DNA of 32,000 nucleotides from Cylindrospermopsis raciborskii Cr2010 (GTDB lineage: Bacteria; Cyanobacteriota; Cyanobacteriia; Cyanobacteriales; Nostocaceae): contig NZ_CP065936.1 in the NCBI RefSeq assembly GCF_003367075.2, forward strand, positions 3,060,001 through 3,092,000. The letters are read 5' to 3'. Under the pieces are notes generated by a model. It made no database searches, was not told the DNA's origin, and was given only the letters and a program-made list of their open reading frames with translations. Shown here in pieces: positions 1,939-18,143 of this stretch (its first letter is position 1; the number at the start of each line of letters is the position of its first letter). Position numbers and translations under genes: made by a program.

Positions 1939-3708
1939 ATGTCGCAATTAAGAGATTCTCTGCGTCGCACCAAAATCGTTGCTACCATCGGACCTGCTAC
2001 CAGCAGTCCAGAAATGCTAAAAGCGATTATTGAAGCTGGAGCAACCACTCTAAGATTAAATTTTTCCCATGGGACTCACGCTGATCATCAGCGTAGCATC
2101 CGTTTGATTAGACAAACTGCTTTTGAGTTAAACAGACCAGTAGCAATCTTGCAAGATTTACAAGGACCTAAAATTCGTCTAGGTAAATTTGATAATGGTT
2201 TTATCATGCTATCTAAAGGCGATCGCTTTACTCTAACAAATCGTCCAGTAGTGGGGAATGAAGAAATTAGCTGTGTCACCTATGATTATCTAGCAGAGGA
2301 AGTGCCAATTGGGTCAAAAATTCTCCTTGATGATGGTCGAGTAGAAATGGTGGTGGAAGAAATTAACCGTGACAAAGGAGATTTACATTGTCGAGTCACA
2401 GTTGCGGGTAAACTTTCTAACAACAAGGGGGTCAACTTTCCCGGAGTGTATTTGTCTATTAAAGCCATGACCGATAAGGATCGAGAGGATCTGATGTTTG
2501 GTTTAGACCAGGGAGTGGATTGGGTGGCTTTGTCCTTTGTGCGTAACCCCCAAGACATTATAGAAATCAAAGAGTTAATTTCCAGCACTGGTAAGAATGT
2601 GCCCGTAGTTGCCAAGATAGAGAAACACGAAGCCATAGAACAAATGGAAGAAGTTCTTTCCTTGTGTGATGGAGTAATGGTTGCTAGGGGTGATTTAGGG
2701 GTAGAACTACCTGCAGAAGATGTTCCCGTACTACAAAAGCGATTAATTGCCACGGCTAACCGTTTAGGCATTCCTATTATCACTGCTACTCAAATGTTAG
2801 ATAGCATGGTCAGTAATCCTCGTCCAACTCGTGCTGAAGTGTCCGACGTTGCCAACGCGATTTTAGATGGTACAGATGCGGTAATGCTTTCCAATGAGAC
2901 GGCGGTAGGTAACTATCCGGTAGAAGCAGTAGCTACTATGGCTAGAATAGCAGAGCGTATTGAACAGGAACAGATAAATACCAGTTCCCGTCTAGGAACA
3001 GATGATAAACGTTCTATTCCTAATGCTATTAGTCAAGCTGTGGGACAGATTGCTGAGAACTTAGGTGCAGCAGCAATCATGACCTTGACCCAAACGGGAG
3101 CAACTGCGCGTAATGTTTCTAAATACCGTCCTAAAACGCCCATTTTAGCTATCACACCTCATGTAAACGTAGCCAGACAATTACAAATGGTTTGGGGTGT
3201 TAGACCTTTACTCGTATTGGACTTACCTTCCACCGGTCAAACATTCCAAGCTGCCATTAACGTAGCTCAAGAAAAAAGGCTCTTGAGTGAGGGGGATTTA
3301 GTTGTAATGACTGCTGGTACATTGCAGGGAGTTTCTGGGTCTACAGACCTAATTAAAGTGGAAGTAGTCACAGCTATATTAGGTCAAGGAATTGGTTTAG
3401 GACAGGGTTCTGTTAGTGGTCGTGCAAGAGTGGTGCGCAATGGTATAGACGCGACCAATTTCAGCCAAGGAGATATTTTAGTAGCATCCAGCACCGGAGC
3501 AGGTTGTGTGGAAGCAATCCGTAAGGCTAGTGGTATTATTACGGAGGAGGAGAGTTTGAATAGTCATGCTGCTGTAATTGGATTGAGATTAGGAGTACCA
3601 GTAATAGTGGGTGTCAAGCAAGCGACCCAAGTAATAAAAGATGGGACAATTTTGACCTTAGATATGCAGCGGGGATTAGTCTATTCTGGTGCGGTGGGTA
3701 CAAGGTGA
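1939..3708 (+). CDS. pyk: Pyruvate kinase with C-terminal PEP-utilising-enzyme mobile-domain-like extension
   Basis: 589-aa ORF with pyruvate kinase motifs TKIVATIGPAT, LNFSHG, MVARGDLGVELP and VMLSNETA. A C-terminal extension of about 110 aa (GIITEEESLNSHAAVIGLRLGVPVIVG) resembles the swivelling phosphohistidine domain seen on some bacterial and cyanobacterial PKs. Confidence 0.95.
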   Translation: MSQLRDSLRRTKIVATIGPATSSPEMLKAIIEAGATTLRLNFSHGTHADHQRSIRLIRQTAFELNRPVAILQDLQGPKIRLGKFDNGFIMLSKGDRFTLTNRPVVGNEEISCVTYDYLAEEVPIGSKILLDDGRVEMVVEEINRDKGDLHCRVTVAGKLSNNKGVNFPGVYLSIKAMTDKDREDLMFGLDQGVDWVALSFVRNPQDIIEIKELISSTGKNVPVVAKIEKHEAIEQMEEVLSLCDGVMVARGDLGVELPAEDVPVLQKRLIATANRLGIPIITATQMLDSMVSNPRPTRAEVSDVANAILDGTDAVMLSNETAVGNYPVEAVATMARIAERIEQEQINTSSRLGTDDKRSIPNAISQAVGQIAENLGAAAIMTLTQTGATARNVSKYRPKTPILAITPHVNVARQLQMVWGVRPLLVLDLPSTGQTFQAAINVAQEKRLLSEGDLVVMTAGTLQGVSGSTDLIKVEVVTAILGQGIGLGQGSVSGRARVVRNGIDATNFSQGDILVASSTGAGCVEAIRKASGIITEEESLNSHAAVIGLRLGVPVIVGVKQATQVIKDGTILTLDMQRGLVYSGAVGTR

Positions 3709-3752
3709 ACATGCTCTATTACAATTCTAAGAAATTGGACTAATCATTACAG

Positions 3753-4850
3753 ATGAGCCAAGAAGTAAACCTAAAAAACTTGCCTTTGGGGATAAACACG
3801 CTGGACAAACTGCGTGGTAGTGACTGTGTCTATGTGGACAAAACGCATTTGGCATTAAAACTGATTAAACAACCTGGTGCGTTTTTTTTGTCACGACCAA
3901 GACGCTTTGGCAAAAGTCTATTCAAGGACATCACTATTAGCGAAGCTTACTCATCCATCTGTGGTTATACTGAAACCGATCTGCGAGAGTCCTTCGGTGA
4001 CCACCTTGAGGGAGTAGATTGGGATGCACTGCGCCATTGGTACAATGGTTATAATTGGACAGGTTCAGAGACTGTTTATAACCCCTACGATATCCTCCTC
4101 TTCATTAGCGAAGGCATGAGATTTCGTAATTACTGGTTTGAAACGGGTAGTCCCAGCTTTTTACTCAAACTGTTCCAGAAGGAGCGGTATTTCCTACCTA
4201 ATTTGGAGGGAATGGAGGTAACGGAGGAAATACTTGATTCCTTTGATGTGGAGCAGATTAACCCAGTGACCCTCCTGTTTCAGTCTGGTTATCTGACCAT
4301 TAAGGACACATTTACAGATATCAACCAAATAGTGTTTTGCTTGGGTATACCCAATATGGAGGTGAAGATTGCCCTCAACAACCAGTTTATCAACGCCTAT
4401 ACCAAATTAGTAAACGAAAAATTAGGTGTACAAAGACTGATACATACCCAACTGAGTTCTGGAGATGTAGAAGGCTTAGTCAGCACCATCAAGCGATTAT
4501 TTGCCTCCATTCCTTGGCGGAATTTCACTAATAACGACCTAGCGGATTTTGAAGGATATTATACTTCTGTGATTTACGCCTTCCTCAGTTCCTTGGATGC
4601 TCGAGTGATTCCAGAAGATATCACTAATCATGGTCAGTCGGACTTAACTGTTATGGTGGAGGGACACATTTATGTGATGGAAATCAAGGTGGTAGAGGGG
4701 AATCAAGTCCGGGATAATGCAGCACTTGACCAAATCCTCCAGCGAAACTATGCTGAAAAATACCGTGGGGAACCGGGAAAATCTGTCCATGAAATTGGTT
4801 TGATATTTAGTCGCAGCCAAAGGGATCTTATACAAGCGAACTGGCAATAA
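3753..4850 (+). CDS. Array copy 1 (A-del-P): internally deleted DUF1703-type paralog that keeps the P-loop and the PD-(D/E)XK domain but lacks the ATPase core
   Basis: 365-aa ORF. The N-terminus MSQEV...SRPRRFGKSLF is joined directly to KDITISEAYSSICGYTE at nt 3922/3923. Relative to full-length copies, 468 bp (156 codons) are missing in frame, including Walker B VLVDEYD. It carries private substitutions not seen in other copies (EGMEV, YYTSVIY, VEGH, RDLIQANWQ). It may be a decaying or nuclease-only derivative. Confidence 0.7.
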   Translation: MSQEVNLKNLPLGINTLDKLRGSDCVYVDKTHLALKLIKQPGAFFLSRPRRFGKSLFKDITISEAYSSICGYTETDLRESFGDHLEGVDWDALRHWYNGYNWTGSETVYNPYDILLFISEGMRFRNYWFETGSPSFLLKLFQKERYFLPNLEGMEVTEEILDSFDVEQINPVTLLFQSGYLTIKDTFTDINQIVFCLGIPNMEVKIALNNQFINAYTKLVNEKLGVQRLIHTQLSSGDVEGLVSTIKRLFASIPWRNFTNNDLADFEGYYTSVIYAFLSSLDARVIPEDITNHGQSDLTVMVEGHIYVMEIKVVEGNQVRDNAALDQILQRNYAEKYRGEPGKSVHEIGLIFSRSQRDLIQANWQ

Positions 4851-4908
4851 GTCTGGTTAAGAATTGACCTGCTCTAATAAGAGCCTAATATATTGGATTA
4901 ATCACTAC

Positions 4909-6477
4909 ATGATGAGCCAAGAAGTAGACGTAAAAAACTTGCCGTTAGGGATAAATACGCTAGACAAAATGCGTGGTAGTAACTGTGTCTATGTGGACAA
5001 AACGAGTTTCGCATTAAGATTAATTAAACAACCTGGAGCGTTCTTTCTGTCACGACCAAGACGCTTTGGCAAAAGTCTATTTGTGGATACTCTGAAGGAG
5101 ATATTCGAGGGGAATGAAAAATTGTTTGAGGGACTCTATATTCATGACAAATGGGACTGGAGTCGTAAATTCCCAGTAATTAAGATTGATTTTGCGGATG
5201 GAGTATTAAAAAACCGGGAAGAGTTGGATAAACGTGTATTAGACCTTTTGCGCAAGAATGCGGAGCGCCTGGGAGTATCCTACGAGTCAAATGATATACC
5301 AGGGAAATTTGGAACCCTGATTGGGGAAGCAGTGGCTAAATATGGTACTAGAGCAGTAGTATTGGTAGATGAATACGACAAACCAATCCTCGATAATATA
5401 GATAACCCAAATATCGCCGCTGAAATGCGAGAGGGACTGAAAAACCTTTACTCAGTGTTGAAGGGTCAAGATGCCAACCTCCAGTTCGTGTTTATGACTG
5501 GAGTCACTAAGTTTTCTAAGGTCAGCCTATTTAGTGGAATTAATCAACTAACGGACATCACCATTGATAAACAATACTCATCCATCTGTGGTTATACTGA
5601 AACCGACCTGCGGGAGTCCTTCGGTGACCACCTTGAGGGAGTAGATTTTGACCAAGTGCGCAATTGGTACAATGGTTATAATTGGACAGGATCGGAGACT
5701 GTTTATAATCCCTATGACATCTTGCTGTTTATTGGAAAAGGCCAAGTTTTCCGTAACTACTGGTTTGAAACGGGTAGTCCCAGCTTTCTACTCAAACTGT
5801 TCCAGAAGGAGCGTTATTTCCTACCCAATTTGGAGGGAATCGAGGTAACGGAGGAAATACTTGATTCCTTTGATGTGGAGCAGATTAACCCAGTGACCCT
5901 CCTGTTTCAGTCTGGTTATCTGACCATTAAGGACACATTTACAGATATCAACCAAATAGTGTTTTGCTTGGGTATACCCAATATGGAGGTGAAGATTGCC
6001 CTCAACAACCAGTTTATCAACGCCTATACCAAATTAGTAAACGAAAAGTTAGGTGTACAAAGACTGATACATACCCAACTGAGTTCTGGAGATGTAGAAG
6101 GCTTAGTCAGCACCATCAAGCGATTATTTGCCTCCATTCCTTGGCGGAATTTCACTAATAATGACCTAGCGGATTTTGAAGGATATTATGCCTCTGTGAT
6201 TTACGCCTTCTTGAGTTCCTTGGATGCTCGAGTGATTCCAGAAGATATCACTAATCATGGTCAGTCGGACTTAACTGTTATGGTGGGGGGACACATCTAT
6301 GTGATGGAAATCAAGGTGGTAGAGGGGAATCAAGTCCGGGATAATGCAGCACTTGACCAAATCCTCCAGCGAAACTATGCTGAAAAATACCGTGGGGAAC
6401 CGGGAAAATCTGTCCATGAAATTGGTTTGATATTTAGTCGCAGCCAACGGAATCTTATACAAGCGGACTGGCACTGA
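4909..6477 (+). CDS. Array copy 2 (A-X-P): AAA-ATPase_like (PF09820-type) + PD-(D/E)XK PDDEXK_9 (PF08011-type) protein
   Basis: Motifs YVDKT, SRPRRFGKS (P-loop), VVLVDEYD (Walker B), FVFMTGV, DLADFEGYY, GQSD...YVMEIKV (D...ExK). The start is taken at ATG 4909 (or 4912, MSQEV, matching copy 1). The TTG at 4864 used by the ORF track lies inside a promoter-like TTGACC and adds 15 non-conserved residues. Confidence 0.85.
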   Translation: MMSQEVDVKNLPLGINTLDKMRGSNCVYVDKTSFALRLIKQPGAFFLSRPRRFGKSLFVDTLKEIFEGNEKLFEGLYIHDKWDWSRKFPVIKIDFADGVLKNREELDKRVLDLLRKNAERLGVSYESNDIPGKFGTLIGEAVAKYGTRAVVLVDEYDKPILDNIDNPNIAAEMREGLKNLYSVLKGQDANLQFVFMTGVTKFSKVSLFSGINQLTDITIDKQYSSICGYTETDLRESFGDHLEGVDFDQVRNWYNGYNWTGSETVYNPYDILLFIGKGQVFRNYWFETGSPSFLLKLFQKERYFLPNLEGIEVTEEILDSFDVEQINPVTLLFQSGYLTIKDTFTDINQIVFCLGIPNMEVKIALNNQFINAYTKLVNEKLGVQRLIHTQLSSGDVEGLVSTIKRLFASIPWRNFTNNDLADFEGYYASVIYAFLSSLDARVIPEDITNHGQSDLTVMVGGHIYVMEIKVVEGNQVRDNAALDQILQRNYAEKYRGEPGKSVHEIGLIFSRSQRNLIQADWH

Positions 6478-6513
6478 ATTTTGACTTTGCAATAATTGCA
6501 ATAATGGGGTGTT

Positions 6514-8067
6514 ATGAATTTACAAAATTTGCCCTTGGGGATCAATACCCTGAGTGTGTTGCGTGAAAACAATTGTGTCTATGTAGATAAAACAAAGTTG
6601 GCTTACCATCTTATCCGGATTGCGGGAAGATTTTTTCTGTCACGACCAAGACGCTTTGGCAAAAGTCTATTTGTGGATACCCTGAAGGAGATATTCGAGG
6701 GGAATGAAAAATTGTTTGAGGGGCTCTATATTCATGACAAATGGGACTGGAGTCGTAAATTCCCAGTAATTAAGATTGATTTTGCGGATGGGGTATTAAA
6801 AAACCGGGAAGAGTTGGATAAACGTGTATTAGACCTTTTGCGCAAGAATGCGGAGCGCCTGGGAGTATCCTACGAGTCAAATGATATACCAGGGAAATTT
6901 GGAACCCTGATTGGGGAAGCAGTGGCTAAATATGGTACTAGAGCAGTAGTACTGGTAGATGAATACGACAAACCAATCCTCGATAATATAGACAATCCAA
7001 ATATCGCCGCTGAAATGCGAGAGGGACTGAAAAACCTTTACTCAGTGCTAAAGGGTCAAGATGCCAACCTCCAGTTCGTGTTTATGACTGGAGTCACTAA
7101 GTTCTCCAACGTCAGCCTATTTAGTGGGATTAATCAACTAACGGACATCACCATTAATAACCAATACTCATCCATCTGTGGTTATACTGAAACCGACCTG
7201 CGGGAGTCCTTCGGTGACCACCTTGAGGGAGTAGATTTTGACCAAGTGCGCAATTGGTACAATGGTTATAATTGGACAGGATCGGAGACTGTTTATAATC
7301 CCTATGACATCTTGCTGTTTATTGGAAAAGGCCAAGTTTTCCGTAACTACTGGTTTGAAACGGGTAGTCCCAGCTTTCTACTCAAACTGTTCCAGAAGGA
7401 GCGTTATTTCCTACCCAATTTGGAGGGAATCGAGGTAACGGAGGAAATACTTGATTCCTTTGATGTGGAGCAGATTAACCCAGTGACCCTCCTGTTTCAG
7501 TCTGGTTATCTGACCATTAAGGACACATTTACAGATATCAACCAAATAGTGTTTTGCTTGGGTATACCCAATATGGAGGTGAAGATTGCCCTCAACAACC
7601 AGTTTATCAACGCCTATACCAAATTAGTAAACGAAAAGTTAGGTGTACAAAGACTGATACATACCCAACTGAGTTCTGGAGATGTAGAAGGCTTAGTCAG
7701 CACCATCAAGCGATTATTTGCCTCCATTCCTTGGCGGAATTTCACTAATAACGACCTAGCGGATTTTGAAGGATATTATGCTTCTGTGATTTACGCCTTC
7801 CTCAGTTCCTTGGATGCTCGAGTGATTCCAGAAGATATCACTAATCATGGTCAGTCGGACTTAACTGTTATGGTGGGGGGACACATCTATGTGATGGAAA
7901 TCAAGGTGGTAGAGGGGAATCAAGTCCGGGATAATGCAGCACTTGACCAAATCCTCCAGCGAAACTATGCTGAAAAATACCGTGGGGAACCGGGAAAATC
8001 TGTCCATGAAATTGGTTTGATATTTAGTCGCAGCCAACGGAATCTTATACAAGCGGACTGGCACTGA
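6514..8067 (+). CDS. Array copy 3 (B-X-P): AAA-ATPase_like + PD-(D/E)XK (PDDEXK_9) protein
   Basis: 517-aa ORF with the same motif set as copy 2. B-type N-terminus MNLQNLPLGINTLSVLRENNCVYVDKTKLAYHLIRIAGRFF. From about nt 6640 it matches copy 2 at an offset of 1590 bp with scattered SNPs. Confidence 0.87.
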   Translation: MNLQNLPLGINTLSVLRENNCVYVDKTKLAYHLIRIAGRFFLSRPRRFGKSLFVDTLKEIFEGNEKLFEGLYIHDKWDWSRKFPVIKIDFADGVLKNREELDKRVLDLLRKNAERLGVSYESNDIPGKFGTLIGEAVAKYGTRAVVLVDEYDKPILDNIDNPNIAAEMREGLKNLYSVLKGQDANLQFVFMTGVTKFSNVSLFSGINQLTDITINNQYSSICGYTETDLRESFGDHLEGVDFDQVRNWYNGYNWTGSETVYNPYDILLFIGKGQVFRNYWFETGSPSFLLKLFQKERYFLPNLEGIEVTEEILDSFDVEQINPVTLLFQSGYLTIKDTFTDINQIVFCLGIPNMEVKIALNNQFINAYTKLVNEKLGVQRLIHTQLSSGDVEGLVSTIKRLFASIPWRNFTNNDLADFEGYYASVIYAFLSSLDARVIPEDITNHGQSDLTVMVGGHIYVMEIKVVEGNQVRDNAALDQILQRNYAEKYRGEPGKSVHEIGLIFSRSQRNLIQADWH

Positions 8068-8103
8068 ATTTTGACTTTGCAATAATTGCAATAATGGGGT
8101 GTT

Positions 8104-9657
8104 ATGAATTTACAAAATTTGCCCTTGGGGATCAATACCCTGAGCGTGTTGCGTGAAAACAATTGTGTCTATGTAGATAAAACAAAGTTGGCTTACCATC
8201 TTATCCGGATTGCAGGAAGATTCTTTTTGTCGCGACCAAGACGCTTTGGCAAAAGTCTATTTGTGGATACCCTGAAAGAGATATTCGAGGGGAATGAAAA
8301 ATTGTTTGAGGGGCTCTATATTCATGACAAATGGGACTGGAGTCGTAAATTCCCAGTAATTAAGATTGATTTTGCTGGTGGTGTGCTCAGAAACCGGGAG
8401 GAGCTGGACAAAAAAATTAATGGTATGCTGTTGAAAACCACAAAGTCCTTGAGGATTAACTGCGAACTGGACGATATTCAAGGACGTTTTGGAGAAATCA
8501 TCGCTGGTGCAAGGGAGCAGTTTGGTGAAAGGGTGGTGGTGCTGGTAGATGAATACGACAAACCAATTCTCGATAATATAGATAAACCAAATATCGCCGC
8601 TGAAATGCGAGAGGGACTGAAAAACTTTTACTCAGTGTTGAAGAGTCAAGATGCCAACCTCCAGTTCGTGTTTATGACTGGAGTCACTAAGTTTTCCAAG
8701 GTCAGCCTATTTAGTGGGATTAATCAACTCAAGGACATCACTATTAGCGAAGCTTACTCATCCATCTGTGGTTATACTGAAACCGACCTGCGAGAGTCCT
8801 TCGGTGACCACCTTGAGGGAGTAGATTTTGACCAAGTGCGCAATTGGTACAATGGTTATAATTGGACAGGTTCAGAGACTGTTTATAACCCCTACGATAT
8901 CCTCCTCTTCATTAGTGAAGGTATGAGATTTCGCAACTACTGGTTTGAGACGGGTAGTCCCACATTCCTAGTCAAGTTGTTTCAAACCAATCGCTATTTC
9001 CTTCCCAACCTGGAACATTTGGAGGTTACAGAGGAGATATTGGAATCCTTTGAAGTAGAAAAGATTAATCCAGTTACCTTGTTGTTTCAATCAGGGTATT
9101 TGACTATTGAACGAACCTTTACCCGTCGCCAACGCTACATGTTTGCACTGAAAATTCCCAACTTGGAAGTTCGTCTGGCATTGAATGACCAGTTTATTAA
9201 CGCCTATACGGAAAATGTGAACGAAAAGAGTGGGATTCAAGACTCTCTATACGAGTTTATGAATAGAGGGGATGTGGAATCAATGATTATGGCAATTAAG
9301 AGATTGTTTGCGGGTATTCCCTGGCGGAATTTCACTAATAATGACCTAGCGGATTTTGAAGGATATTATGCCTCTGTGATTTACGCCTTCTTGAGTTCCT
9401 TAGATGCTAGAGTTATCCCGGAGGACATTAGCAACTATGGTCAAGCGGATATAACCACCATGCTTGGAGCCCATATCTATGTGATGGAAATCAAGGTGGT
9501 AGAGGGGAATCAAGTCCAGGGAAATCCAGCACTTGACCAAATCCTCCAGCGAAACTATGCTGAAAAATACCGTGGGGAACCGGGAAAATCTGTCCATGAG
9601 ATTGGTTTGATATTTAGTCGCAGCCAACAAAATCTTATACAAGCGGACTGGCAATAA
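8104..9657 (+). CDS. Array copy 4 (B-Y-Q): AAA-ATPase_like + PD-(D/E)XK (PDDEXK_9) protein
   Basis: 517-aa ORF with all catalytic motifs intact. Y mid cassette (ELDKKINGMLLKTTKSLRINCELDDIQGR). Q C-half cassette (TFLVKLFQTNRYF...SNYGQADITTMLGAH). Confidence 0.87.
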   Translation: MNLQNLPLGINTLSVLRENNCVYVDKTKLAYHLIRIAGRFFLSRPRRFGKSLFVDTLKEIFEGNEKLFEGLYIHDKWDWSRKFPVIKIDFAGGVLRNREELDKKINGMLLKTTKSLRINCELDDIQGRFGEIIAGAREQFGERVVVLVDEYDKPILDNIDKPNIAAEMREGLKNFYSVLKSQDANLQFVFMTGVTKFSKVSLFSGINQLKDITISEAYSSICGYTETDLRESFGDHLEGVDFDQVRNWYNGYNWTGSETVYNPYDILLFISEGMRFRNYWFETGSPTFLVKLFQTNRYFLPNLEHLEVTEEILESFEVEKINPVTLLFQSGYLTIERTFTRRQRYMFALKIPNLEVRLALNDQFINAYTENVNEKSGIQDSLYEFMNRGDVESMIMAIKRLFAGIPWRNFTNNDLADFEGYYASVIYAFLSSLDARVIPEDISNYGQADITTMLGAHIYVMEIKVVEGNQVQGNPALDQILQRNYAEKYRGEPGKSVHEIGLIFSRSQQNLIQADWQ

Positions 9658-9715
9658 GTCTGGTTAAGAATTGACCTGCTCTAATAAGAGCCTAATATAT
9701 TGGATTAATCACTAC

Positions 9716-11284
9716 ATGATGAGCCAAGAAGTAGACGTAAAAAACTTGCCGTTAGGGATAAATACGCTAGACAAAATGCGTGGTAGTAACTGTGTCTATG
9801 TGGACAAAACGAGTTTCGCATTAAGATTAATTAAACAACCTGGAGCGTTCTTTCTGTCACGACCAAGACGCTTTGGCAAAAGTCTATTTGTGGATACCCT
9901 GAAGGAGATATTCGAGGGGAATGAAAAATTGTTTGAGGGGCTCTATATTCATGACAAATGGGACTGGAGTCGTAAATTCCCAGTAATTAAGATTGATTTT
10001 GCTGGTGGTGTGCTCAGAAACCGGGAGGAGCTGGACAAAAAAATTAATGGTATGCTGTTGAAAACCACAAAGTCCTTGAGGATTAACTGCGAACTGGACG
10101 ATATTCAAGGACGTTTTGGAGAAATCATCGCTGGTGCAAGGGAGCAGTTTGGTGAAAGGGTGGTGGTGCTGGTAGATGAATACGACAAACCAATTCTCGA
10201 TAATATAGATAAACCAAATATCGCCGCTGAAATGCGAGAGGGACTGAAAAACTTTTACTCAGTGTTGAAGAGTCAAGATGCCAACCTCCAGTTCGTGTTT
10301 ATGACTGGAGTCACTAAGTTTTCCAAGGTCAGCCTATTTAGTGGGATTAATCAACTCAAGGACATCACTATTAGCGAAGCTTACTCATCCATCTGTGGTT
10401 ATACTGAAACCGACCTGCGAGAGTCCTTCGGTGACCACCTTGAGGGAGTAGATTTTGACCAAGTGCGCAATTGGTACAATGGTTATAATTGGACAGGTTC
10501 AGAGACTGTTTATAACCCCTACGATATCCTCCTCTTCATTAGTGAAGGTATGAGATTTCGCAACTACTGGTTTGAGACGGGTAGTCCCACATTCCTAGTC
10601 AAGTTGTTTCAAACCAATCGCTATTTCCTTCCCAACCTGGAACATTTGGAGGTTACAGAGGAGATATTGGAATCCTTTGAAGTAGAAAAGATTAATCCAG
10701 TTACCTTGTTGTTTCAATCAGGGTATTTGACTATTGAACGAACCTTTACCCGTCGCCAACGCTACATGTTTGCACTGAAAATTCCCAACTTGGAAGTTCG
10801 TCTGGCATTGAATGACCAGTTTATTAACGCCTATACGGAAAATGTGAACGAAAAGAGTGGGATTCAAGACTCTCTATACGAGTTTATGAATAGAGGGGAT
10901 GTGGAATCAATGATTATGGCAATTAAGAGATTGTTTGCGGGTATTCCCTGGCGGAATTTCACTAATAATGACCTAGCGGATTTTGAAGGATATTATGCCT
11001 CTGTGATTTACGCCTTCTTGAGTTCCTTAGATGCTAGAGTTATCCCGGAGGACATTAGCAACTATGGTCAAGCGGATATAACCACCATGCTTGGAGCCCA
11101 TATCTATGTGATGGAAATCAAGGTGGTAGAGGGGAATCAAGTCCAGGGAAATCCAGCACTTGACCAAATCCTCCAGCGAAACTATGCTGAAAAATACCGT
11201 GGGGAACCGGGAAAATCTGTCCATGAGATTGGTTTGATATTTAGTCGCAGCCAACAAAATCTTATACAAGCGGACTGGCAATAA
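9716..11284 (+). CDS. Array copy 5 (A-Y-Q): AAA-ATPase_like + PD-(D/E)XK (PDDEXK_9) protein
   Basis: After the N-terminal cassette the protein is identical to copy 4. The DNA at 9905-11284 is identical to 8278-9657. Start at ATG 9716/9719 rather than the track's TTG 9671. Confidence 0.85.
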   Translation: MMSQEVDVKNLPLGINTLDKMRGSNCVYVDKTSFALRLIKQPGAFFLSRPRRFGKSLFVDTLKEIFEGNEKLFEGLYIHDKWDWSRKFPVIKIDFAGGVLRNREELDKKINGMLLKTTKSLRINCELDDIQGRFGEIIAGAREQFGERVVVLVDEYDKPILDNIDKPNIAAEMREGLKNFYSVLKSQDANLQFVFMTGVTKFSKVSLFSGINQLKDITISEAYSSICGYTETDLRESFGDHLEGVDFDQVRNWYNGYNWTGSETVYNPYDILLFISEGMRFRNYWFETGSPTFLVKLFQTNRYFLPNLEHLEVTEEILESFEVEKINPVTLLFQSGYLTIERTFTRRQRYMFALKIPNLEVRLALNDQFINAYTENVNEKSGIQDSLYEFMNRGDVESMIMAIKRLFAGIPWRNFTNNDLADFEGYYASVIYAFLSSLDARVIPEDISNYGQADITTMLGAHIYVMEIKVVEGNQVQGNPALDQILQRNYAEKYRGEPGKSVHEIGLIFSRSQQNLIQADWQ

Positions 11285-11342
11285 GTCTGGTTAAGAATTG
11301 ACCTGCTCTAATAAGAGCCTAATATATTGGATTAATCACTAC

Positions 11343-12911
11343 ATGATGAGCCAAGAAGTAGACGTAAAAAACTTGCCGTTAGGGATAAATACGCTAGACA
11401 AAATGCGTGGTAGTAACTGTGTCTATGTGGACAAAACGAGTTTCGCATTAAGATTAATTAAACAACCTGGAGCGTTCTTTCTGTCACGACCAAGACGCTT
11501 TGGCAAAAGTCTATTTGTGGATACCCTGAAGGAGATATTCGAGGGGAATGAAAAATTGTTTGAGGGGCTCTATATTCATGACAAATGGGAATGGAGTCGT
11601 AAATTCCCAGTAATTAAGATTGATTTTGCTGGTGGTGTGCTCAGAAACCGGGAAGAGTTGGATGAAAAGATTCGGGATCTCCTTTGGAATAACGGCGATC
11701 GCCTGGGGGTTGGCTCGAAAAAGAAGAGTATCAGCGGGATTTTTGGAGAAATCATCGCTGGTGCAAGGGAGCAGTTTGGTGAAAGGGTAGTGGTGCTGGT
11801 AGATGAATACGACAAACCGATTCTCGATAATATAGATAACCCAAATATCGCCGCTGAAATGCGAGAGGGACTGAAAAACTTTTACTCAGTGTTGAAGAGT
11901 CAAGATGCCAACCTCCAGTTCGTGTTTATGACTGGAGTCACTAAGTTTTCTAAGGTCAGCCTATTTAGTGGGATTAATCAACTAACGGACATCACTATTA
12001 GCGAAGCTTACTCATCCATCTGTGGTTATACTGAAACCGACCTGCGAGAGTCCTTCGGTGACCACCTTGAGGGAGTAGATTGGGATGCACTGCGCCATTG
12101 GTACAATGGTTATAATTGGACAGGCTCAGAGACTGTTTATAACCCCTACGATATCCTCCTCTTCATTAACGAAGGCATGAGATTTCGTAACTACTGGTTT
12201 GAAACGGGTAGTCCCAGCTTTCTACTCAAACTGTTCCAGAAGGAGCGGTATTTCCTACCTAATTTGGAGGGAATCCAGGTAACGGAGGAAATACTTGATT
12301 CCTTTGATGTGGAGCAGATTAACCCAGTGACCCTCCTGTTTCAGTCTGGTTATCTGACCATTAAGGACATATTTACAGATATCAACCAAATAGTGTTTTG
12401 TTTGGGTATACCCAATATGGAGGTGAAGATTGCTCTCAACAACCAGTTTATCAACGCCTATACCAAATTAGTAAACGAAAAGTTAGGTGTACAAAGACTG
12501 ATACATACCCAACTGAGTTCTGGAGATGTAGAAGGCTTAGTCAGCACCATCAAGCGATTATTTGCCTCCATTCCTTGGCGGAATTTCACTAATAACGACC
12601 TAGCGGATTTTGAAGGATATTATGCTTCTGTGATTTACGCCTTCCTCAGTTCCTTGGATGCTCGAGTTATCCCAGAAGATATCACTAATCATGGTCAGTC
12701 GGACTTAACTGTTATGGTGGGGGGACACATTTATGTGATGGAAATCAAGGTGGTAGAGGGGAATCAAGTCCAGGGAAATCCAGCACTTGACCAAATCCTC
12801 CAGCGAAACTATGCTGAAAAATACCGTGGGGAACCGGGAAAATCTGTCCATGAGATTGGTTTGATATTTAGTCGCAGCCAACAAAATCTTATACAAGCGG
12901 ACTGGCACTAA
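11343..12911 (+). CDS. Array copy 6 (A-Z-P): AAA-ATPase_like + PD-(D/E)XK (PDDEXK_9) protein
   Basis: The spacer and N-terminus are identical to copy 5. Z mid cassette (ELDEKIRDLLWNNGDRLGVGSKKKSISGI), which contains a HIP1 site at 11695-11702. P C-half with the QGNPA tail variant. Start at ATG 11343/11346 rather than TTG 11298. Confidence 0.85.
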   Translation: MMSQEVDVKNLPLGINTLDKMRGSNCVYVDKTSFALRLIKQPGAFFLSRPRRFGKSLFVDTLKEIFEGNEKLFEGLYIHDKWEWSRKFPVIKIDFAGGVLRNREELDEKIRDLLWNNGDRLGVGSKKKSISGIFGEIIAGAREQFGERVVVLVDEYDKPILDNIDNPNIAAEMREGLKNFYSVLKSQDANLQFVFMTGVTKFSKVSLFSGINQLTDITISEAYSSICGYTETDLRESFGDHLEGVDWDALRHWYNGYNWTGSETVYNPYDILLFINEGMRFRNYWFETGSPSFLLKLFQKERYFLPNLEGIQVTEEILDSFDVEQINPVTLLFQSGYLTIKDIFTDINQIVFCLGIPNMEVKIALNNQFINAYTKLVNEKLGVQRLIHTQLSSGDVEGLVSTIKRLFASIPWRNFTNNDLADFEGYYASVIYAFLSSLDARVIPEDITNHGQSDLTVMVGGHIYVMEIKVVEGNQVQGNPALDQILQRNYAEKYRGEPGKSVHEIGLIFSRSQQNLIQADWH

Positions 12912-12938
12912 ATCTTGACTTTGCAATAATGGGGTGTT

Positions 12939-14492
12939 ATGAATTTACAAAATTTGCCCTTGGGGATCAATACCCTGAGTGTGTTGCGTGAAAACAATTG
13001 TGTCTATGTAGATAAAACAAAGTTGGCTTACCATCTTATCAGGATTGCAGGAAGATTCTTTTTGTCACGACCAAGACGCTTTGGCAAAAGTCTATTTGTG
13101 GATACCCTGAAGGAGATATTCGAGGGGAATGAAAAATTGTTTGAGGGACTCTATATTCATGACAAATGGGACTGGAGTTGTAAATTCCCAGTCATTAAGA
13201 TTGATTTTGCTGGTGGTGTTCTCAGAAACCGGGAGGAGCTGGACAAAAAAATTAATGGTATGCTGTTGAAAACCACAAAGTCCTTGAGGATTAACTGCGA
13301 ACTGGACGATATTCAAGGACGTTTTGGAGAAATCATCGCTGGTGCAAGGGAGCAGTTTGGTGAAAGGGTAGTGGTGCTGGTAGATGAATACGACAAACCG
13401 ATTCTCGATAATATAGATAACCCAAATATCGCCGCTGAAATGCGAGAGGGACTGAAAAACTTTTACTCAGTGTTGAAGAGTCAAGATGCCAACCTCCAGT
13501 TCGTGTTTATGACTGGAGTCACTAAGTTTTCTAAGGTCAGCCTATTTAGTGGGATTAATCAACTAACGGACATCACTATTAGCGAAGCTTACTCATCCAT
13601 CTGTGGTTATACTGAAACCGACCTGCGAGAGTCCTTCGGTGACCACCTTGAGGGAGTAGATTGGGATGCACTGCGCCATTGGTACAATGGTTATAATTGG
13701 ACAGGCTCAGAGACTGTTTATAACCCCTACGATATCCTCCTCTTCATTAACGAAGGCATGAGATTTCGTAACTACTGGTTTGAAACGGGTAGTCCCAGCT
13801 TTCTACTCAAACTGTTCCAGAAGGAGCGGTATTTCCTACCTAATTTGGAGGGAATCCAGGTAACGGAGGAAATACTTGATTCCTTTGATGTGGAGCAGAT
13901 TAACCCAGTGACCCTCCTGTTTCAGTCTGGTTATCTGACCATTAAGGACATATTTACAGATATCAACCAAATAGTGTTTTGTTTGGGTATACCCAATATG
14001 GAGGTGAAGATTGCTCTCAACAACCAGTTTATCAACGCCTATACCAAATTAGTAAACGAAAAGTTAGGTGTACAAAGACTGATACATACCCAACTGAGTT
14101 CTGGAGATGTAGAAGGCTTAGTCAGCACCATCAAGCGATTATTTGCCTCCATTCCTTGGCGGAATTTCACTAATAACGACCTAGCGGATTTTGAAGGATA
14201 TTATGCTTCTGTGATTTACGCCTTCCTCAGTTCCTTGGATGCTCGAGTTATCCCAGAAGATATCACTAATCATGGTCAGTCGGACTTAACTGTTATGGTG
14301 GGGGGACACATTTATGTGATGGAAATCAAGGTGGTAGAGGGGAATCAAGTCCGGGATAATGCAGCACTTGACCAAATCCTCCAGCGAAACTATGCTGAAA
14401 AGTACCGTGGGGAACCGAGAAAATCTGTCCATGAAATTGGTTTGATATTTAGTCGCAGCCAACGGAACCTTATACAAGCGGACTGGCACTGA
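12939..14492 (+). CDS. Array copy 7 (B-Y-P): AAA-ATPase_like + PD-(D/E)XK (PDDEXK_9) protein
   Basis: 517-aa ORF. B N-terminus, Y mid cassette as in copies 4 and 5, P C-half as in copy 6. Private change WSCKF. Preceded by the short 27-nt spacer variant. Confidence 0.87.
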   Translation: MNLQNLPLGINTLSVLRENNCVYVDKTKLAYHLIRIAGRFFLSRPRRFGKSLFVDTLKEIFEGNEKLFEGLYIHDKWDWSCKFPVIKIDFAGGVLRNREELDKKINGMLLKTTKSLRINCELDDIQGRFGEIIAGAREQFGERVVVLVDEYDKPILDNIDNPNIAAEMREGLKNFYSVLKSQDANLQFVFMTGVTKFSKVSLFSGINQLTDITISEAYSSICGYTETDLRESFGDHLEGVDWDALRHWYNGYNWTGSETVYNPYDILLFINEGMRFRNYWFETGSPSFLLKLFQKERYFLPNLEGIQVTEEILDSFDVEQINPVTLLFQSGYLTIKDIFTDINQIVFCLGIPNMEVKIALNNQFINAYTKLVNEKLGVQRLIHTQLSSGDVEGLVSTIKRLFASIPWRNFTNNDLADFEGYYASVIYAFLSSLDARVIPEDITNHGQSDLTVMVGGHIYVMEIKVVEGNQVRDNAALDQILQRNYAEKYRGEPRKSVHEIGLIFSRSQRNLIQADWH

Positions 14493-14528
14493 ATCTTGAC
14501 TTTGCAATAATTGCAATAATGGGGTGTT

Positions 14529-16082
14529 ATGAATTTACAAAATTTGCCCTTGGGGATCAATACCCTGAGCGTGTTGCGTGAAAACAATTGTGTCTATGTA
14601 GATAAAACAAAGTTGGCTTACCATCTTATCAGGATTGCAGGAAGATTCTTTTTGTCGCGACCAAGACGCTTTGGTAAAAGTCTATTTGTGGATACCCTGA
14701 AAGAGATATTCGAGGGGAATGAAAAATTGTTTGAGGGGCTCTATATTCATGACAAATGGGAATGGAGTCGTAAGTTTCCCGTAATTAAGATTGATTTTGC
14801 TGGTGGTGTGATCAGAAACCGGGAAGAGTTGGATGAAAAGATTCGGGATCTCCTTTGGAATAATGGCGATCGCCTGGGGGTTGGCTCGAAAAAGAAGAGT
14901 ATCAGCGGGATTTTTGGAGAAATCATCGCTGGTGCAAGGGAGCAGTTTGGTGAAAGGATAGTGGTGCTGGTAGATGAATACGACAAACCGATTCTCGATA
15001 ATATAGACAATCCAAATATCGCCGCTGAAATGCGAGAGGGACTGAAAAACCTTTACTCAGTGTTGAAGAGTCAAGATGCCAACCTCCAGTTCGTGTTTAT
15101 GACTGGAGTCACTAAGTTTTCTAAGGTCAGCCTATTTAGTGGGATTAATCAACTAACGGACATCACTATTAGCGAAGCTTACTCATCCATCTGTGGTTAT
15201 ACTGAAACCGACCTGCGAGAGTCCTTCGGTGACCACCTTGAGGGAGTAGATTGGGATGCACTGCGCCATTGGTACAATGGTTATAATTGGACAGGCTCAG
15301 AGACTGTTTATAACCCCTACGATATCCTCCTCTTCATTAACGAAGGCATGAGATTTCGTAACTACTGGTTTGAAACGGGTAGTCCCAGCTTTCTACTCAA
15401 ACTGTTCCAGAAGGAGCGGTATTTCCTACCTAATTTGGAGGGAATCCAGGTAACGGAGGAAATACTTGATTCCTTTGATGTGGAGCAGATTAACCCAGTG
15501 ACCCTCCTGTTTCAGTCTGGTTATCTGACCATTAAGGACATATTTACAGATATCAACCAAATAGTGTTTTGTTTGGGTATACCCAATATGGAGGTGAAGA
15601 TTGCTCTCAACAACCAGTTTATCAACGCCTATACCAAATTAGTAAACGAAAAGTTAGGTGTACAAAGACTGATACATACCCAACTGAGTTCTGGAGATGT
15701 AGAAGGCTTAGTCAGCACCATCAAGCGATTATTTGCCTCCATTCCTTGGCGGAATTTCACTAATAACGACCTAGCGGATTTTGAAGGATATTATGCTTCT
15801 GTGATTTACGCCTTCCTCAGTTCCTTGGATGCTCGAGTTATCCCAGAAGATATCACTAATCATGGTCAGTCGGACTTAACTGTTATGGTGGGGGGACACA
15901 TTTATGTGATGGAAATCAAGGTGGTAGAGGGGAATCAAGTCCGGGATAATGCAGCACTTGACCAAATCCTCCAGCGAAACTATGCTGAAAAGTACCGTGG
16001 GGAACCGAGAAAATCTGTCCATGAAATTGGTTTGATATTTAGTCGCAGCCAACGGAACCTTATACAAGCGGACTGGCACTGA
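14529..16082 (+). CDS. Array copy 8 (B-Z-P): AAA-ATPase_like + PD-(D/E)XK (PDDEXK_9) protein
   Basis: 517-aa ORF. The C-terminal two thirds are base-identical to copy 7. The N-terminal two fifths are base-identical to copy 9. Confidence 0.87.
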   Translation: MNLQNLPLGINTLSVLRENNCVYVDKTKLAYHLIRIAGRFFLSRPRRFGKSLFVDTLKEIFEGNEKLFEGLYIHDKWEWSRKFPVIKIDFAGGVIRNREELDEKIRDLLWNNGDRLGVGSKKKSISGIFGEIIAGAREQFGERIVVLVDEYDKPILDNIDNPNIAAEMREGLKNLYSVLKSQDANLQFVFMTGVTKFSKVSLFSGINQLTDITISEAYSSICGYTETDLRESFGDHLEGVDWDALRHWYNGYNWTGSETVYNPYDILLFINEGMRFRNYWFETGSPSFLLKLFQKERYFLPNLEGIQVTEEILDSFDVEQINPVTLLFQSGYLTIKDIFTDINQIVFCLGIPNMEVKIALNNQFINAYTKLVNEKLGVQRLIHTQLSSGDVEGLVSTIKRLFASIPWRNFTNNDLADFEGYYASVIYAFLSSLDARVIPEDITNHGQSDLTVMVGGHIYVMEIKVVEGNQVRDNAALDQILQRNYAEKYRGEPRKSVHEIGLIFSRSQRNLIQADWH

Positions 16083-16118
16083 ATCTTGACTTTGCAATAA
16101 TTGCAATAATGGGGTGTT

Positions 16119-17672
16119 ATGAATTTACAAAATTTGCCCTTGGGGATCAATACCCTGAGCGTGTTGCGTGAAAACAATTGTGTCTATGTAGATAAAACAA
16201 AGTTGGCTTACCATCTTATCAGGATTGCAGGAAGATTCTTTTTGTCGCGACCAAGACGCTTTGGTAAAAGTCTATTTGTGGATACCCTGAAAGAGATATT
16301 CGAGGGGAATGAAAAATTGTTTGAGGGGCTCTATATTCATGACAAATGGGAATGGAGTCGTAAGTTTCCCGTAATTAAGATTGATTTTGCTGGTGGTGTG
16401 ATCAGAAACCGGGAAGAGTTGGATGAAAAGATTCGGGATCTCCTTTGGAATAATGGCGATCGCCTGGGGGTTGGCTCGAAAAAGAAGAGTATCAGCGGGA
16501 TTTTTGGAGAAATCATCGCTGGTGCAAGGGAGCAGTTTGGTGAAAGGATAGTGGTGCTGGTAGATGAATACGACAAACCGATTCTCGATAATATAGACAA
16601 TCCAAATATCGCCGCTGAAATGCGAGAGGGACTGAAAAACCTTTACTCAGTGTTGAAGAGTCAAGATGCCAACCTCCAGTTCGTGTTTATGACTGGAGTC
16701 ACTAAGTTTTCTAAGGTCAGCCTATTTAGTGGGATTAATCAACTCAAGGACATCACTATTAGCGAAGCTTACTCATCCATCTGTGGTTATACTGAAACCG
16801 ACCTGCGAGAGTCCTTCGGTGACCACCTTGAGGGAGTAGATTGGGATGCACTGCGCCATTGGTACAATGGTTATAATTGGACAGGTTCAGAGACTGTTTA
16901 TAACCCCTACGATATCCTCCTCTTCATTAGTGAAGGTATGAGATTTCGCAACTACTGGTTTGAGACGGGTAGTCCCACATTCCTAGTCAAGTTGTTTCAA
17001 ACCAATCGCTATTTCCTTCCCAACCTGGAACATTTGGAGGTTACAGAGGAGATATTGGAATCCTTTGAAGTAGAAAAGATTAATCCAGTTACCTTGTTGT
17101 TTCAATCAGGGTATTTGACTATTGAACGAACCTTTACCCGTCGCCAACGCTACATGTTTGCACTGAAAATTCCCAACTTGGAAGTTCGTCTGGCATTGAA
17201 TGACCAGTTTATTAACGCCTATACGGAAAATGTGAACGAAAAGAGTGGGATTCAAGACTCTCTATACGAGTTTATGAATAGAGGGGATGTGGAATCAATG
17301 ATTATGGCAATTAAGAGATTGTTTGCGGGTATTCCCTGGCGGAATTTCACTAATAATGACCTAGCGGATTTTGAAGGATATTATGCCTCTGTGATTTACG
17401 CCTTCTTGAGTTCCTTAGATGCTAGAGTTATCCCGGAGGACATTAGCAACTATGGTCAAGCGGATATAACCACCATGCTTGGAGCCCATATCTATGTGAT
17501 GGAAATCAAGGTGGTAGAGGGGAATCAAGTCCAGGGAAATCCAGCACTTGACCAAATCCTCCAGCGAAACTATGCTGAAAAATACCGTGGGGAACCGGGA
17601 AAATCTGTCCATGAGATTGGTTTGATATTTAGTCGCAGCCAACGGAACCTTATACAAGCGGACTGGCAATAA
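16119..17672 (+). CDS. Array copy 9 (B-Z-Q): AAA-ATPase_like + PD-(D/E)XK (PDDEXK_9) protein, patchwork of copy-8-like and copy-4/5-like segments
   Basis: 517-aa ORF. Positions 16119-16744 are identical to copy 8. The Q cassette from about 16866 matches copy 4 at an offset of 8015 bp. The WDALRH patch resembles copies 6-8. The tail mixes QGNPA (as copies 4-6), RN (as copies 7-8) and WQ-TAA-gtctggtta (as copies 4-5). Confidence 0.87.
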   Translation: MNLQNLPLGINTLSVLRENNCVYVDKTKLAYHLIRIAGRFFLSRPRRFGKSLFVDTLKEIFEGNEKLFEGLYIHDKWEWSRKFPVIKIDFAGGVIRNREELDEKIRDLLWNNGDRLGVGSKKKSISGIFGEIIAGAREQFGERIVVLVDEYDKPILDNIDNPNIAAEMREGLKNLYSVLKSQDANLQFVFMTGVTKFSKVSLFSGINQLKDITISEAYSSICGYTETDLRESFGDHLEGVDWDALRHWYNGYNWTGSETVYNPYDILLFISEGMRFRNYWFETGSPTFLVKLFQTNRYFLPNLEHLEVTEEILESFEVEKINPVTLLFQSGYLTIERTFTRRQRYMFALKIPNLEVRLALNDQFINAYTENVNEKSGIQDSLYEFMNRGDVESMIMAIKRLFAGIPWRNFTNNDLADFEGYYASVIYAFLSSLDARVIPEDISNYGQADITTMLGAHIYVMEIKVVEGNQVQGNPALDQILQRNYAEKYRGEPGKSVHEIGLIFSRSQRNLIQADWQ

Positions 17673-17728
17673 GTCTGGTTAGGTAAACTTAGGGCTTGTT
17701 AGTTTGCTTTTTGTGAGTAGGTATAGCG

Positions 17729-17758
17729 TTGACAACTCAACAGTTGGCGTGATAAAAT
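17729..17758 (+). promoter_or_regulatory. Sigma70-type promoter candidate for the small membrane protein and kinase genes
   Basis: TTGACA at 17729-17734, then a 17/18-nt spacer, then ATAAAAT (TAAAAT at 17753-17758). It lies 40 nt upstream of ATG 17798. Motif match only. Confidence 0.4.
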
Positions 17759-17797: not shown

Positions 17798-18085
17798 ATG
17801 ACAGTTTGGTTGATATGCTTCTTATTATTATTTGCCATAGCGGAGGTATTCAGCTGGGCTTTTGACTGGTTGGGAGAGTTATCTCTACCCTTACCTATAC
17901 ACATTTTGGCAGGGTCAATTTTAGCCGTCGCTTCTAACTATGATAGGATACTAGCTCCTTATAACTATAATGGGGAATTTTGGTCAAGAACATCGAGAAT
18001 AGACAATACTACACCGGAGATAACCGTATCTCCAGCTGCAATTAACTACAATCTTTTAGATCAAGAAAATATTAACAATAACTAA
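17798..18085 (+). CDS. Hypothetical small membrane protein (95 aa)
   Basis: ATG-initiated ORF with two hydrophobic helices (WLICFLLLFAIAEVF and PIHILAGSILAVA) and a purine-rich stretch (gagtgaagaaaaa) before the ATG. No recognisable domain. Confidence 0.5.
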   Translation: MTVWLICFLLLFAIAEVFSWAFDWLGELSLPLPIHILAGSILAVASNYDRILAPYNYNGEFWSRTSRIDNTTPEITVSPAAINYNLLDQENINNN

Positions 18086-18143
18086 TCAGCACTAATTGCA
18101 AAAACTTCTTTGGTGAGCAAACAGTTTAGACCACCTGTTGAAT

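Follow-up and report, generated by a model that had tools for sequence, protein, structure and literature searches.

The DUF1703 family was defined computationally by Knizewski et al. 2007 (PMC1913061), who predicted that its members carry an ATPase and a nuclease domain, and it was listed again by Steczkiewicz et al. 2012 (PMC3424549), where PAS/CheY neighbours were noted. The family tends to occur in multiple copies, with nine in Methanospirillum and many in Bacteroidetes (PMC1913061; PMC3424549). In Cardinium cCpun, 25 DUF1703 paralogs with intragenic recombination and a suspected horizontal origin have been reported, and their role was left open (Siozios et al. 2019, PMC6387759). Here we describe a locus of this family in a 32,000-nucleotide stretch of the Cylindrospermopsis (Raphidiopsis) raciborskii Cr2010 assembly (NZ_CP065936.1, positions 3,060,001 to 3,092,000; hereafter the window). 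Nine plus-strand open reading frames (ORFs), spanning 3753-17672, form a head-to-tail array between the pyruvate kinase gene pyk and a conserved ORF of 95 amino acids (aa) that precedes a CHASE2 kinase gene. The array grows, shrinks and reshuffles by homologous unequal crossing-over in conserved linkers.

At the protein level we see no difference from published DUF1703 proteins (PMC1913061; PMC3424549), which have the same four-part architecture, an RPRRFGKS Walker A motif, a DEYD Walker B motif and a D...ExK core. By every feature tested, the array genes are DUF1703 members, and what is new relative to those descriptions is the head-to-tail mosaic array with copy-number change at the level of strains. 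The Cardinium case is likewise a lineage-specific expansion of the same family with recombination between paralogs, so that family expansion with recombination has already been published (PMC6387759). However, the Cardinium paralogs average 39% identity, are predicted to be secreted and come from a fragmented draft assembly in which no tandem arrangement was described, whereas the C. raciborskii array is strictly tandem, has units that are 72-96% identical at the DNA level and contains exact products of recent crossovers. New features are thus the strict tandem mosaic, the complete 2x3x2 set of module combinations across strains, the exact crossover products, the range from about one to about 11 copies at a single site, further arrays in the genus, and effector-type fusions. 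A first-pass annotation of the window stated that the family has no experimentally assigned function, and our full-text literature search turned up no paper that assigns one.

The mechanical ORF calls of the array lie at 3753-4850, 4864-6477, 6514-8067, 8104-9657, 9671-11284, 11298-12911, 12939-14492, 14529-16082 and 16119-17672, which bears out the first-pass description of nine same-strand ORFs filling about 14 kb. Three of the calls begin at TTG and encode 537 aa. These were restarted at the ATG used by gene callers in other strains, which gives 522 aa. The resulting units (U1 to U9, counted from pyk) are all direct repeats, and eight of the nine are intact, the exception being the pyk-proximal U1. 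Tandem Repeats Finder gave no report for the array because the period of about 1.6 kb exceeds its 500-nt limit, and the repeat structure was therefore worked out from our own unit alignments.

The alignment of U2-U9 consists of long runs of sites that share one partition of the units, with abrupt switches to another. Three modules, deeply diverged and set apart by conserved linkers, describe this mosaic. The N module comprises the spacer and residues 1-41 and has alleles A and B, the M module comprises residues 91-146 and has alleles a, b and c, and the C module comprises residues 286-455 and has alleles a and b. With the type of each unit given in the order N-M-C, the units are as follows.

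3753..4850, plus strand: U1, the degenerate pyk-proximal copy, 365 aa, with its own N-terminal type A' and a C_a module.
4909..6477, plus strand: U2, type A-a-a, 522 aa from ATG (the mechanical ORF runs from TTG at 4864).
6514..8067, plus strand: U3, type B-a-a, 517 aa, the basis of the structure model; N module at 6514-6636, M module at 6784-6951, C module at 7369-7878.
8104..9657, plus strand: U4, type B-b-b.
9716..11284, plus strand: U5, type A-b-b, an exact chimera of the U6 5' part and the U4 3' part.
11343..12911, plus strand: U6, type A-c-a.
12939..14492, plus strand: U7, type B-b-a, which follows the 27-nt form of the B spacer.
14529..16082, plus strand: U8, type B-c-a, an exact chimera of the U9 5' part and the U7 3' part.
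16119..17672, plus strand: U9, type B-c-b, the last copy.

The order in the window is A'(U1) - Aaa - Baa - Bbb - Abb - Aca - Bba - Bca - Bcb, wherein each of the eight intact units carries a different module combination. When the module painting was extended to eight or more strains, other strains contributed Acb, Aab, Aba and Bab, with an order that varies by strain, and all 12 N x M x C combinations were found to be present in the species.

The two chimeric units, U5 and U8, have no mismatches to their flanking parents over the following tracts.

9658-9963: U5 tract equal to U6 11285-11590, with the breakpoint in 9905-9964.
9905-11284: U5 tract equal to U4 8278-9657.
14493-15154: U8 tract equal to U9 16083-16744, with the breakpoint in 15052-15155.
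15052-16082: U8 tract equal to U7 13462-14492.

In both cases a unit made of the 5' part of parent 2 and the 3' part of parent 1 lies between parent 1 and parent 2, which is the pattern left by a homologous exchange misaligned by one unit. Removal of U5 and U8 from the array yields exactly the order found in CP091284.1 (A' Aaa Baa Bbb Aca Bba Bcb), and the Acb unit of VHLJ01 likewise lies between Abb and Aca. No dedicated diversification machinery is needed, and the crossovers in the conserved linkers are probably of the ordinary RecA type. With every misaligned exchange the array gains or loses a unit and a new chimera arises, and thus strains differ in their sets of module combinations. We had considered the observation that all eight intact units differ (p ~0.05 for random draws from 12 types) as proof of selection for diversity, but this argument was dropped because unequal crossover inherently makes new chimeras.

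Reassortment in the hsdS genes of type I restriction systems is similar in that variable modules lie between conserved linkers and recombination produces combinatorial variants. However, hsdS and shufflon systems rely on inverted repeats, in many cases aided by a site-specific recombinase, and the switching affects a single expressed gene, whereas the array consists of direct repeats, changes by unequal crossover, keeps all units potentially expressed, has no recombinase nearby and offers no evidence of switching within a clone. It also lacks the features of a transposon or integrative element, since no terminal repeats, transposase, integrase or tRNA target were found in the window and among the annotated neighbours. 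Specifically, a search of the flanks within the window revealed no terminal or inverted repeats around the array, no mobility genes (transposase, integrase, recombinase) are present among the annotated neighbours adjoining it, and a tRNA scan of the window found no tRNA genes. An Rfam scan of the window was also empty.

The units are joined by two types of spacer.

4851..4908, 9658-9715 and 11285-11342, plus strand: A-type spacer, 58 nt, containing TTGACC-16-TAATAT.
6478..6513, 8068-8103, 14493-14528 and 16083-16118, plus strand: B-type spacer, 36 nt.
12912-12938, plus strand: the 27-nt form of the B-type spacer, with one TGCAATAAT repeat fewer.

The spacer lengths of 27, 36 or 58 nt given in the first-pass annotation agree with these features: 27 nt occurs once, 36 nt four times, and 58 nt results when the ATG starts are used. 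The A spacer is a composite of 13 nt that resemble the 3' flank of the array and about 45 nt that resemble the pyk-proximal leader, which matches the expectation for a tandem duplication junction. The 3' flank of U9, GTCTGGTTAGG, resembles the beginning of the A spacer. Which type of spacer follows a gene goes with the last codon of that gene, His before B and Gln before A, and this linkage indicates that the recombining N module straddles the gene boundary. The length forms of the B spacer differ by a 9-nt tandem duplication, in which TGCAATAAT is present once or twice. No terminators were seen between units.

The array is real and not an artefact of assembly. We retrieved the locus from other assemblies by using the exact pyk protein, which is 100% identical in at least eight strains, and the exact 95-aa ORF. 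The interval between these two anchors takes the following forms.

This window: 14,089 bp, nine copies.
CP091284.1: 10,872 bp, seven copies.
VHLJ01000002.1: 13,506 bp, eight copies and a fragment.
JAZGLX010000001.1: 16,659 bp, ten copies and a fragment.
JBFMMC010000042.1 (strain L012): 1,738 bp, one intact 521-aa copy.

Retrievals that reached the locus from one side only (CP073250.1, CP195152.1, LYXA01) contain at least 6-7 copies, and the contigs of short-read assemblies (L007, L008, L015-L018) stop inside the array. In eight of the nine strains compared, only 0-3 nt differ across the 3.7-kb upstream flank (99.9-100% identity), and the ninth, L012, has 29 mismatches there. Because the interval varies and the flank is near-identical, the array must change much faster than its surroundings. 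Comparison of the pyk-to-CHASE2 interval in relatives had been proposed as a check on copy number, and it gives values from about one to about 11 across near-identical strains. This range agrees with the earlier remark that the amplification is unlike an ordinary housekeeping locus, as does the absence of homologs from the pyk loci of relatives: no family homolog lies within 10 kb of pyk in any of 80 other Nostocales species. Synteny is not conserved at those 80 loci, which exclude C. raciborskii and include no true empty site.

U1 has suffered an in-frame deletion of 156 codons, which removed residues 58-213 of the ATPase domain including Walker B and retained Walker A and the nuclease. Its undeleted counterpart is the intact 521-aa sole copy of L012, with which it has the N-terminus and an ANWQ tail in common. 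The pyk-proximal copy of other strains carries different truncations (146-aa fragments). To the earlier description of nine paralogs, with motifs in the full-length copies, it should be added that the 365-aa first copy falls short of full length.

The Pfam families AAA-ATPase_like (PF09820) and PDDEXK_9 (PF08011) match all nine ORFs above their gathering scores, in agreement with the architecture that had been proposed. For PF09820 (cut-off 26.1) the eight full copies score 208-215 bits (E ~1e-62) and U1 scores 57 bits, and for PF08011 (cut-off 25.5) the nine copies score 58-65 bits (E 1e-16 to 1e-18 in the full copies). No further Pfam domains were found in the array proteins, each full copy of which is about 60 kDa, and a profile search of Protein Data Bank sequences gave no match. 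The motifs listed in the first pass (SRPRRFGKS, VVLVDEYD and GQSD/GQAD...YVMEIKV) are present, wherein Walker A (RPRRFGKS) is atypical and Walker B (DEYD) is missing from U1 only. Residues K50, S51, D149, E150, D449, E462 and K464 are among those that never vary in an alignment of 42 sequences, and all of them are kept in the eight full copies.

U3 was modelled with AlphaFold2 (mean predicted local distance difference test score 80.7, predicted template modelling score 0.77). Along the chain, a P-loop domain is followed by a helical lid in which invariant aromatic motifs (YNPYD, YWFETG) abound, by a hairpin resembling a winged helix (334-350), by three helices at 354-404 and by a nuclease core of alpha-beta-beta-beta form. 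In this model the M module is an insertion of two helices that separates strand 2 from the Walker B strand, and the C module is the winged helix with the next three helices, the three-helix bundle being its most variable part. Conceivably M is the counterpart of the initiator-specific motif of ORC/Cdc6, with M and the winged helix as elements that would contact DNA. The best solved structures found by Foldseek are Apaf-1 (E 2.6e-5, probability 0.99), followed by ORC and Cdc6/Orc1, and the nuclease part matches CinB (7esz_C, probability 0.93). The template modelling (TM) scores are low (0.2-0.33), with ORC/Cdc6 scoring similarly to Apaf-1, and so the Apaf-1/ORC-like label is a statement about the fold and not about membership. 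Within that limit, a nucleotide-binding, helical, winged-helix order is compatible with the secondary structure of the model. The model thus depicts an Apaf-1/ORC-like P-loop switch ATPase joined by a helical linker to a predicted PD-(D/E)XK nuclease whose D, E and K residues are intact.

Variation among the units is unevenly distributed. In the conserved segments, synonymous divergence (dS) is 0.1-0.4, nonsynonymous divergence (dN) is 0.03-0.07, or about 0 in the linker beside Walker A, and dN/dS is 0-0.4. These segments appear to be under purifying selection, homogenised, or both. In the modules, dN is 0.25-0.5, and dS is saturated between a-type and other alleles. The same three positions vary in the two other arrays of the genus, and the entropy among 111 distant family members peaks at residues 101-140 and 361-400. 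These hot spots are therefore surfaces that evolve intrinsically fast in the family.

One of these two arrays is a second array in C. raciborskii (CP073250.1:1633200-1654753, at 1.63 Mb), which has at least seven copies with spacers of 224 or 470 nt and adjoins a gene for a dynamin-like GTPase and cobN. The other, in C. curvispora (CP060822.1:584026-605567), has five copies and lies beside genes for Fic, DUF29 and AAA_35/AAA_16 ATPase proteins.

The family is large: among clusters formed at 50% identity, 15,133 match at E<=1e-3 and 2,485 at E<=1e-30, and its range covers bacteria, archaea and even insect genomes. U3 is 64-70% identical to members from unrelated phyla (cyanobacteria, Desulfamplus and a record labelled Woesearchaeota), which suggests horizontal transfer. 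Many genomes carry a single copy. Tandem same-strand arrays also occur elsewhere, including three copies within an exosortase/exopolysaccharide (EPS) operon, and were present in 12 of 80 metagenomic loci, where many contigs end in or just after the gene. Another member is inserted at an ftsEX-peptidase cluster. In Prochlorothrix, family genes are scattered among multi-copy genes for Uma2, DUF29 and Schlafen/AlbA_2+HATPase_c_4 proteins. Members occur sporadically on plasmids, and in Moraxella one lies between rep/par and resolvase genes. Within viral collections the family was limited to 11 IMG/VR contigs and 32 gut fragments that lack annotation, and a phage-borne origin was rejected on account of this rarity in phage and viral collections.

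Several observations accompany this survey. The Moraxella osloensis plasmid NZ_CP068111.1 has the order rep, parA-like ATPase, small ORF, homolog, resolvase, a location that might point to a function in plasmid stability or exclusion. Four further Moraxella plasmids have the same protein match (40.8% identity), and the order was read only in NZ_CP068111.1. In the JGI contig Ga0209088_10000021 (locus 2719-9563), a three-copy array lies right after a gene for an AAA_14+DUF4143 protein, apparently a member of a second, analogous ATPase-nuclease family that is likewise multi-copy. DUF4143 is a PD-(D/E)XK family in the survey by Steczkiewicz et al. (PMC3424549). Genes for dynamin-family GTPases lie a few kb from members in two unrelated contexts, which may be coincidence: three are on the Calditerrivibrio plasmid NC_014749.1 and one is at the second C. 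raciborskii array. The literature also describes proteins with AAA-ATPase-like domains in whitefly and mealybug genomes, among them the products of two adjacent genes of a selfish B chromosome, which males carrying the B over-express. These insect proteins suggest transfer of the family into insects.

What the array does can be approached through the homologs, whose domain fusions are the strongest functional hint. The core is fused to a C-terminal TIR_2 domain in two homologs, to a calcineurin-like phosphoesterase (Metallophos) in two others and to a Polbeta nucleotidyltransferase in one, and one homolog has phosphoesterase, NACHT and FGE-sulfatase domains in front of the core. In prokaryotic conflict systems, such domains typically serve as effector or sensor partners. 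A conflict-type function would also suit the Uma2, DUF29 and Schlafen/AlbA_2 surroundings in Prochlorothrix, the sporadic occurrence on plasmids beside rep, par and resolvase genes in Moraxella, and the few loci that adjoin genes of type III CRISPR-Cas or type III restriction-modification. We consider it an even bet that the array encodes nucleotide-switched nucleases whose variable modules set recognition, and that it serves as a specificity repertoire against mobile DNA. In such a system the variable modules would be the recognition surfaces and the conserved ATPase a nucleotide-dependent switch. Recognition of a foreign nucleic acid or protein would cause the ATPase to oligomerise and thereby license the nuclease to cut DNA, and the array as a whole would represent the specificity repertoire of an innate system against mobile elements.

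The closest conceptual relatives of such a system would be the STAND/NLR (signal transduction ATPases with numerous domains/nucleotide-binding leucine-rich repeat) ATPases, such as Avs and Apaf-1. The likeness consists of the best structural match, to Apaf-1, the logic of a switch ATPase coupled to an effector nuclease, and the fusions of one homolog to NACHT and of others to TIR. However, the array proteins have no C-terminal repeat sensor, their effector is C-terminal, they match no Avs or NLR model in PADLOC, and the TM-scores are only 0.2-0.33. Plant NLR clusters evolve by unequal crossing-over that yields chimeric specificities. The comparison with them is an analogy only, and on it we would suggest, tentatively and with more doubt than confidence, that the array could be a bacterial counterpart of such a cluster, in which N, M and C modules are reassorted into strain-specific repertoires against cyanophages or plasmids, and that DUF1703, among the largest uncharacterised families of ATPase-nucleases, may be an unrecognised family of innate immunity.

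Other described systems resemble the array proteins in single features. PF09820 matches are listed for RdrA of RADAR in a review (PMC10952713), but the array proteins gave no RdrA match at E<=1, no RdrB adenosine deaminase is present among the neighbours, and size and domain order differ. CinB of the CifB/CinB group matches the nuclease part structurally, but there is no CifA-like partner here, and size and domain order again differ. As judged from profile matches, the array proteins correspond to none of the known defence systems that were testable.

Other observations weigh against a defence function or are neutral. The PADLOC run suggested in the first-pass annotation gave no support, as three representative units matched no PADLOC-DB 2.0 model even at E<=1, and no NCBIfam or PHROGs models were matched. 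A Pfam scan found no dedicated sensor domain (TPR, LRR, WD40) such as is present in defensive STAND proteins, and a length of 517 aa leaves no room for one. DUF1703 proteins lack a canonical sensor 1 and arginine finger according to Knizewski et al. (PMC1913061), so that ATP hydrolysis is only putative. The immediate neighbours of the array in the window are housekeeping genes. We also compiled a census of 271 ORFs beside metagenomic homologs, the first 133 of which were scanned with Pfam. Among these 133, two-component signalling proteins and glycosyltransferases are commonest, and the 271 ORFs include genes of one type III CRISPR-Cas locus, of one type III restriction-modification system and of a few candidate systems. 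Defence matches in the census are few, and a crude, non-independent control of syntenic pyk neighbourhoods gave comparable generic matches, with generic kinase and helicase matches inflating both sets. Furthermore, dN/dS exceeds 1 nowhere and reaches at most 0.76 (M alleles b versus c), and the saturation of synonymous sites between a-type and other alleles indicates that the module alleles are old and not rapidly diversifying. Finally, module diversity is no proof of selection, as unequal crossover alone yields non-identical chimeras. The earlier suggestion of an immune logic is partly supported: the effector fusions, the Apaf-1/ORC-like ATPase fold and the concentration of variation in modules speak for it, and the missing PADLOC match, the housekeeping neighbours and the census, with defence systems not clearly commoner than in the control, speak against it or are neutral.

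An alternative that we regard as unlikely is that the genes belong to a selfish or addictive nuclease family that spreads horizontally and persists or amplifies without benefit to the host, and that the array reflects neutral copy-number drift, through unequal crossover, of a parasite that the host tolerates. Such spread would be in keeping with the high identity between very different phyla, with expansions in reduced endosymbionts (PMC6387759) and with the occurrence on plasmids. Members are also inserted co-directionally in or after housekeeping operons with tiny spacers (pyk, exosortase/EPS, ftsEX-peptidase), and the pyk-proximal copy decays in several independent ways. However, eight of the nine copies are intact and their conserved parts appear to be under purifying selection. 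The surroundings of the array hold no transposase, integrase or terminal repeats, its spacing and junctions fit duplication and not transposition, there is no antitoxin-like partner, and the family is rare in viral contigs.

Improbable in our view is a role in cellular DNA metabolism or regulation (repair, recombination, chromosome maintenance), with the array serving dosage amplification, for example in a polyploid filamentous cyanobacterium. The housekeeping flanks, the location of the array on the pyk strand and the ORC/Cdc6-like fold common to replication initiators would fit this role, as would the signalling or envelope genes that are often neighbours in other taxa (PAS/CheY in PMC3424549). 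A dosage function is difficult to reconcile with non-identical copies, with about one to about 11 copies in near-identical strains, or with the lack of a family member at this locus in 80 related species, and a patchy distribution with plasmid occurrence and effector-type fusion partners also speaks against it.

We assign very little probability to the idea that the paralogs form mixed AAA+-type rings, as ORC, RFC and MCM do, so that the array would encode the subunits of one hetero-oligomeric machine. Proteins with an AAA+/STAND-like fold are usually oligomeric, and the copies are non-identical and possibly co-transcribed, as no terminators separate them. However, each strain differs in how many units it has and of which types, down to one copy in one strain, and many genomes have one copy only, all of which is incompatible with a fixed stoichiometric complex.

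Mis-assembly that inflated a gene of one or two copies can be given almost no credence: although exact identical tracts of 0.3-1.4 kb are difficult for assemblers and the count for this strain comes from its assembly, arrays of seven to about 11 copies are seen with both ends at the same site in independent assemblies that are complete or have large contigs (CP091284.1, VHLJ01, JAZGLX01), the chimeric units Abb and Bca turn up again in other assemblies, short-read assemblies break within the array without inflating it, and assembly usually collapses repeats and does not expand them.

The flanks of the array contain the following features.

1939..3708, plus strand: pyk (pyruvate kinase), the upstream anchor, with PF00224, PF02887 and PF00391.
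17729..17758, plus strand: a strong sigma-70-like promoter match, TTGACA-18-TAAAAT (11/12 positions), located after the array and upstream of the 95-aa ORF.
17798..18085, plus strand: the conserved 95-aa ORF, the downstream anchor in all strains.
18138-20408: CHASE2 Ser/Thr kinase, next after the 95-aa ORF.

The first array gene begins 44 nt after the pyk stop codon (3708), and a gap of 125 nt separates the end of the array from the 95-aa ORF, consistent with the first-pass placement of the array directly after pyk and before a promoter-bearing region. The promoter match is the best in the region. The 95-aa ORF has a hydrophobic N-terminus, is exactly conserved in more than 100 assemblies and belongs to no Pfam family.

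Located 3' of the kinase gene is the remnant of an ammonium transporter gene (window 20507-21381; ORF 20501-21223), in which only residues 52-295 and 406-461 of the 463-aa protein of other strains can still be made out, with a nucleotide identity of about 90%. The gene is full-length in L009 and L014, and further strains have smaller remnants of 66-191 aa. This is a second locus that decays differently strain by strain.

The mechanism by which the array changes is ordinary, but the locus is striking and tractable and bears on a large family. It constitutes a natural experiment, in which near-isogenic strains differ from about one to about 11 copies, three modules are swapped cleanly and the latest crossovers can still be read. 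The module layout makes the question of which module confers which property directly testable, and copy number can be related to cyanophage pressure in a species that forms harmful blooms. If the immune interpretation fails, the locus would still be a clear example of unequal crossover and a warning for short-read assemblies, which break here. If it is true, a major family would be added to prokaryotic immunity, and bacteria would be found to share the birth-and-death evolution of NLR clusters.

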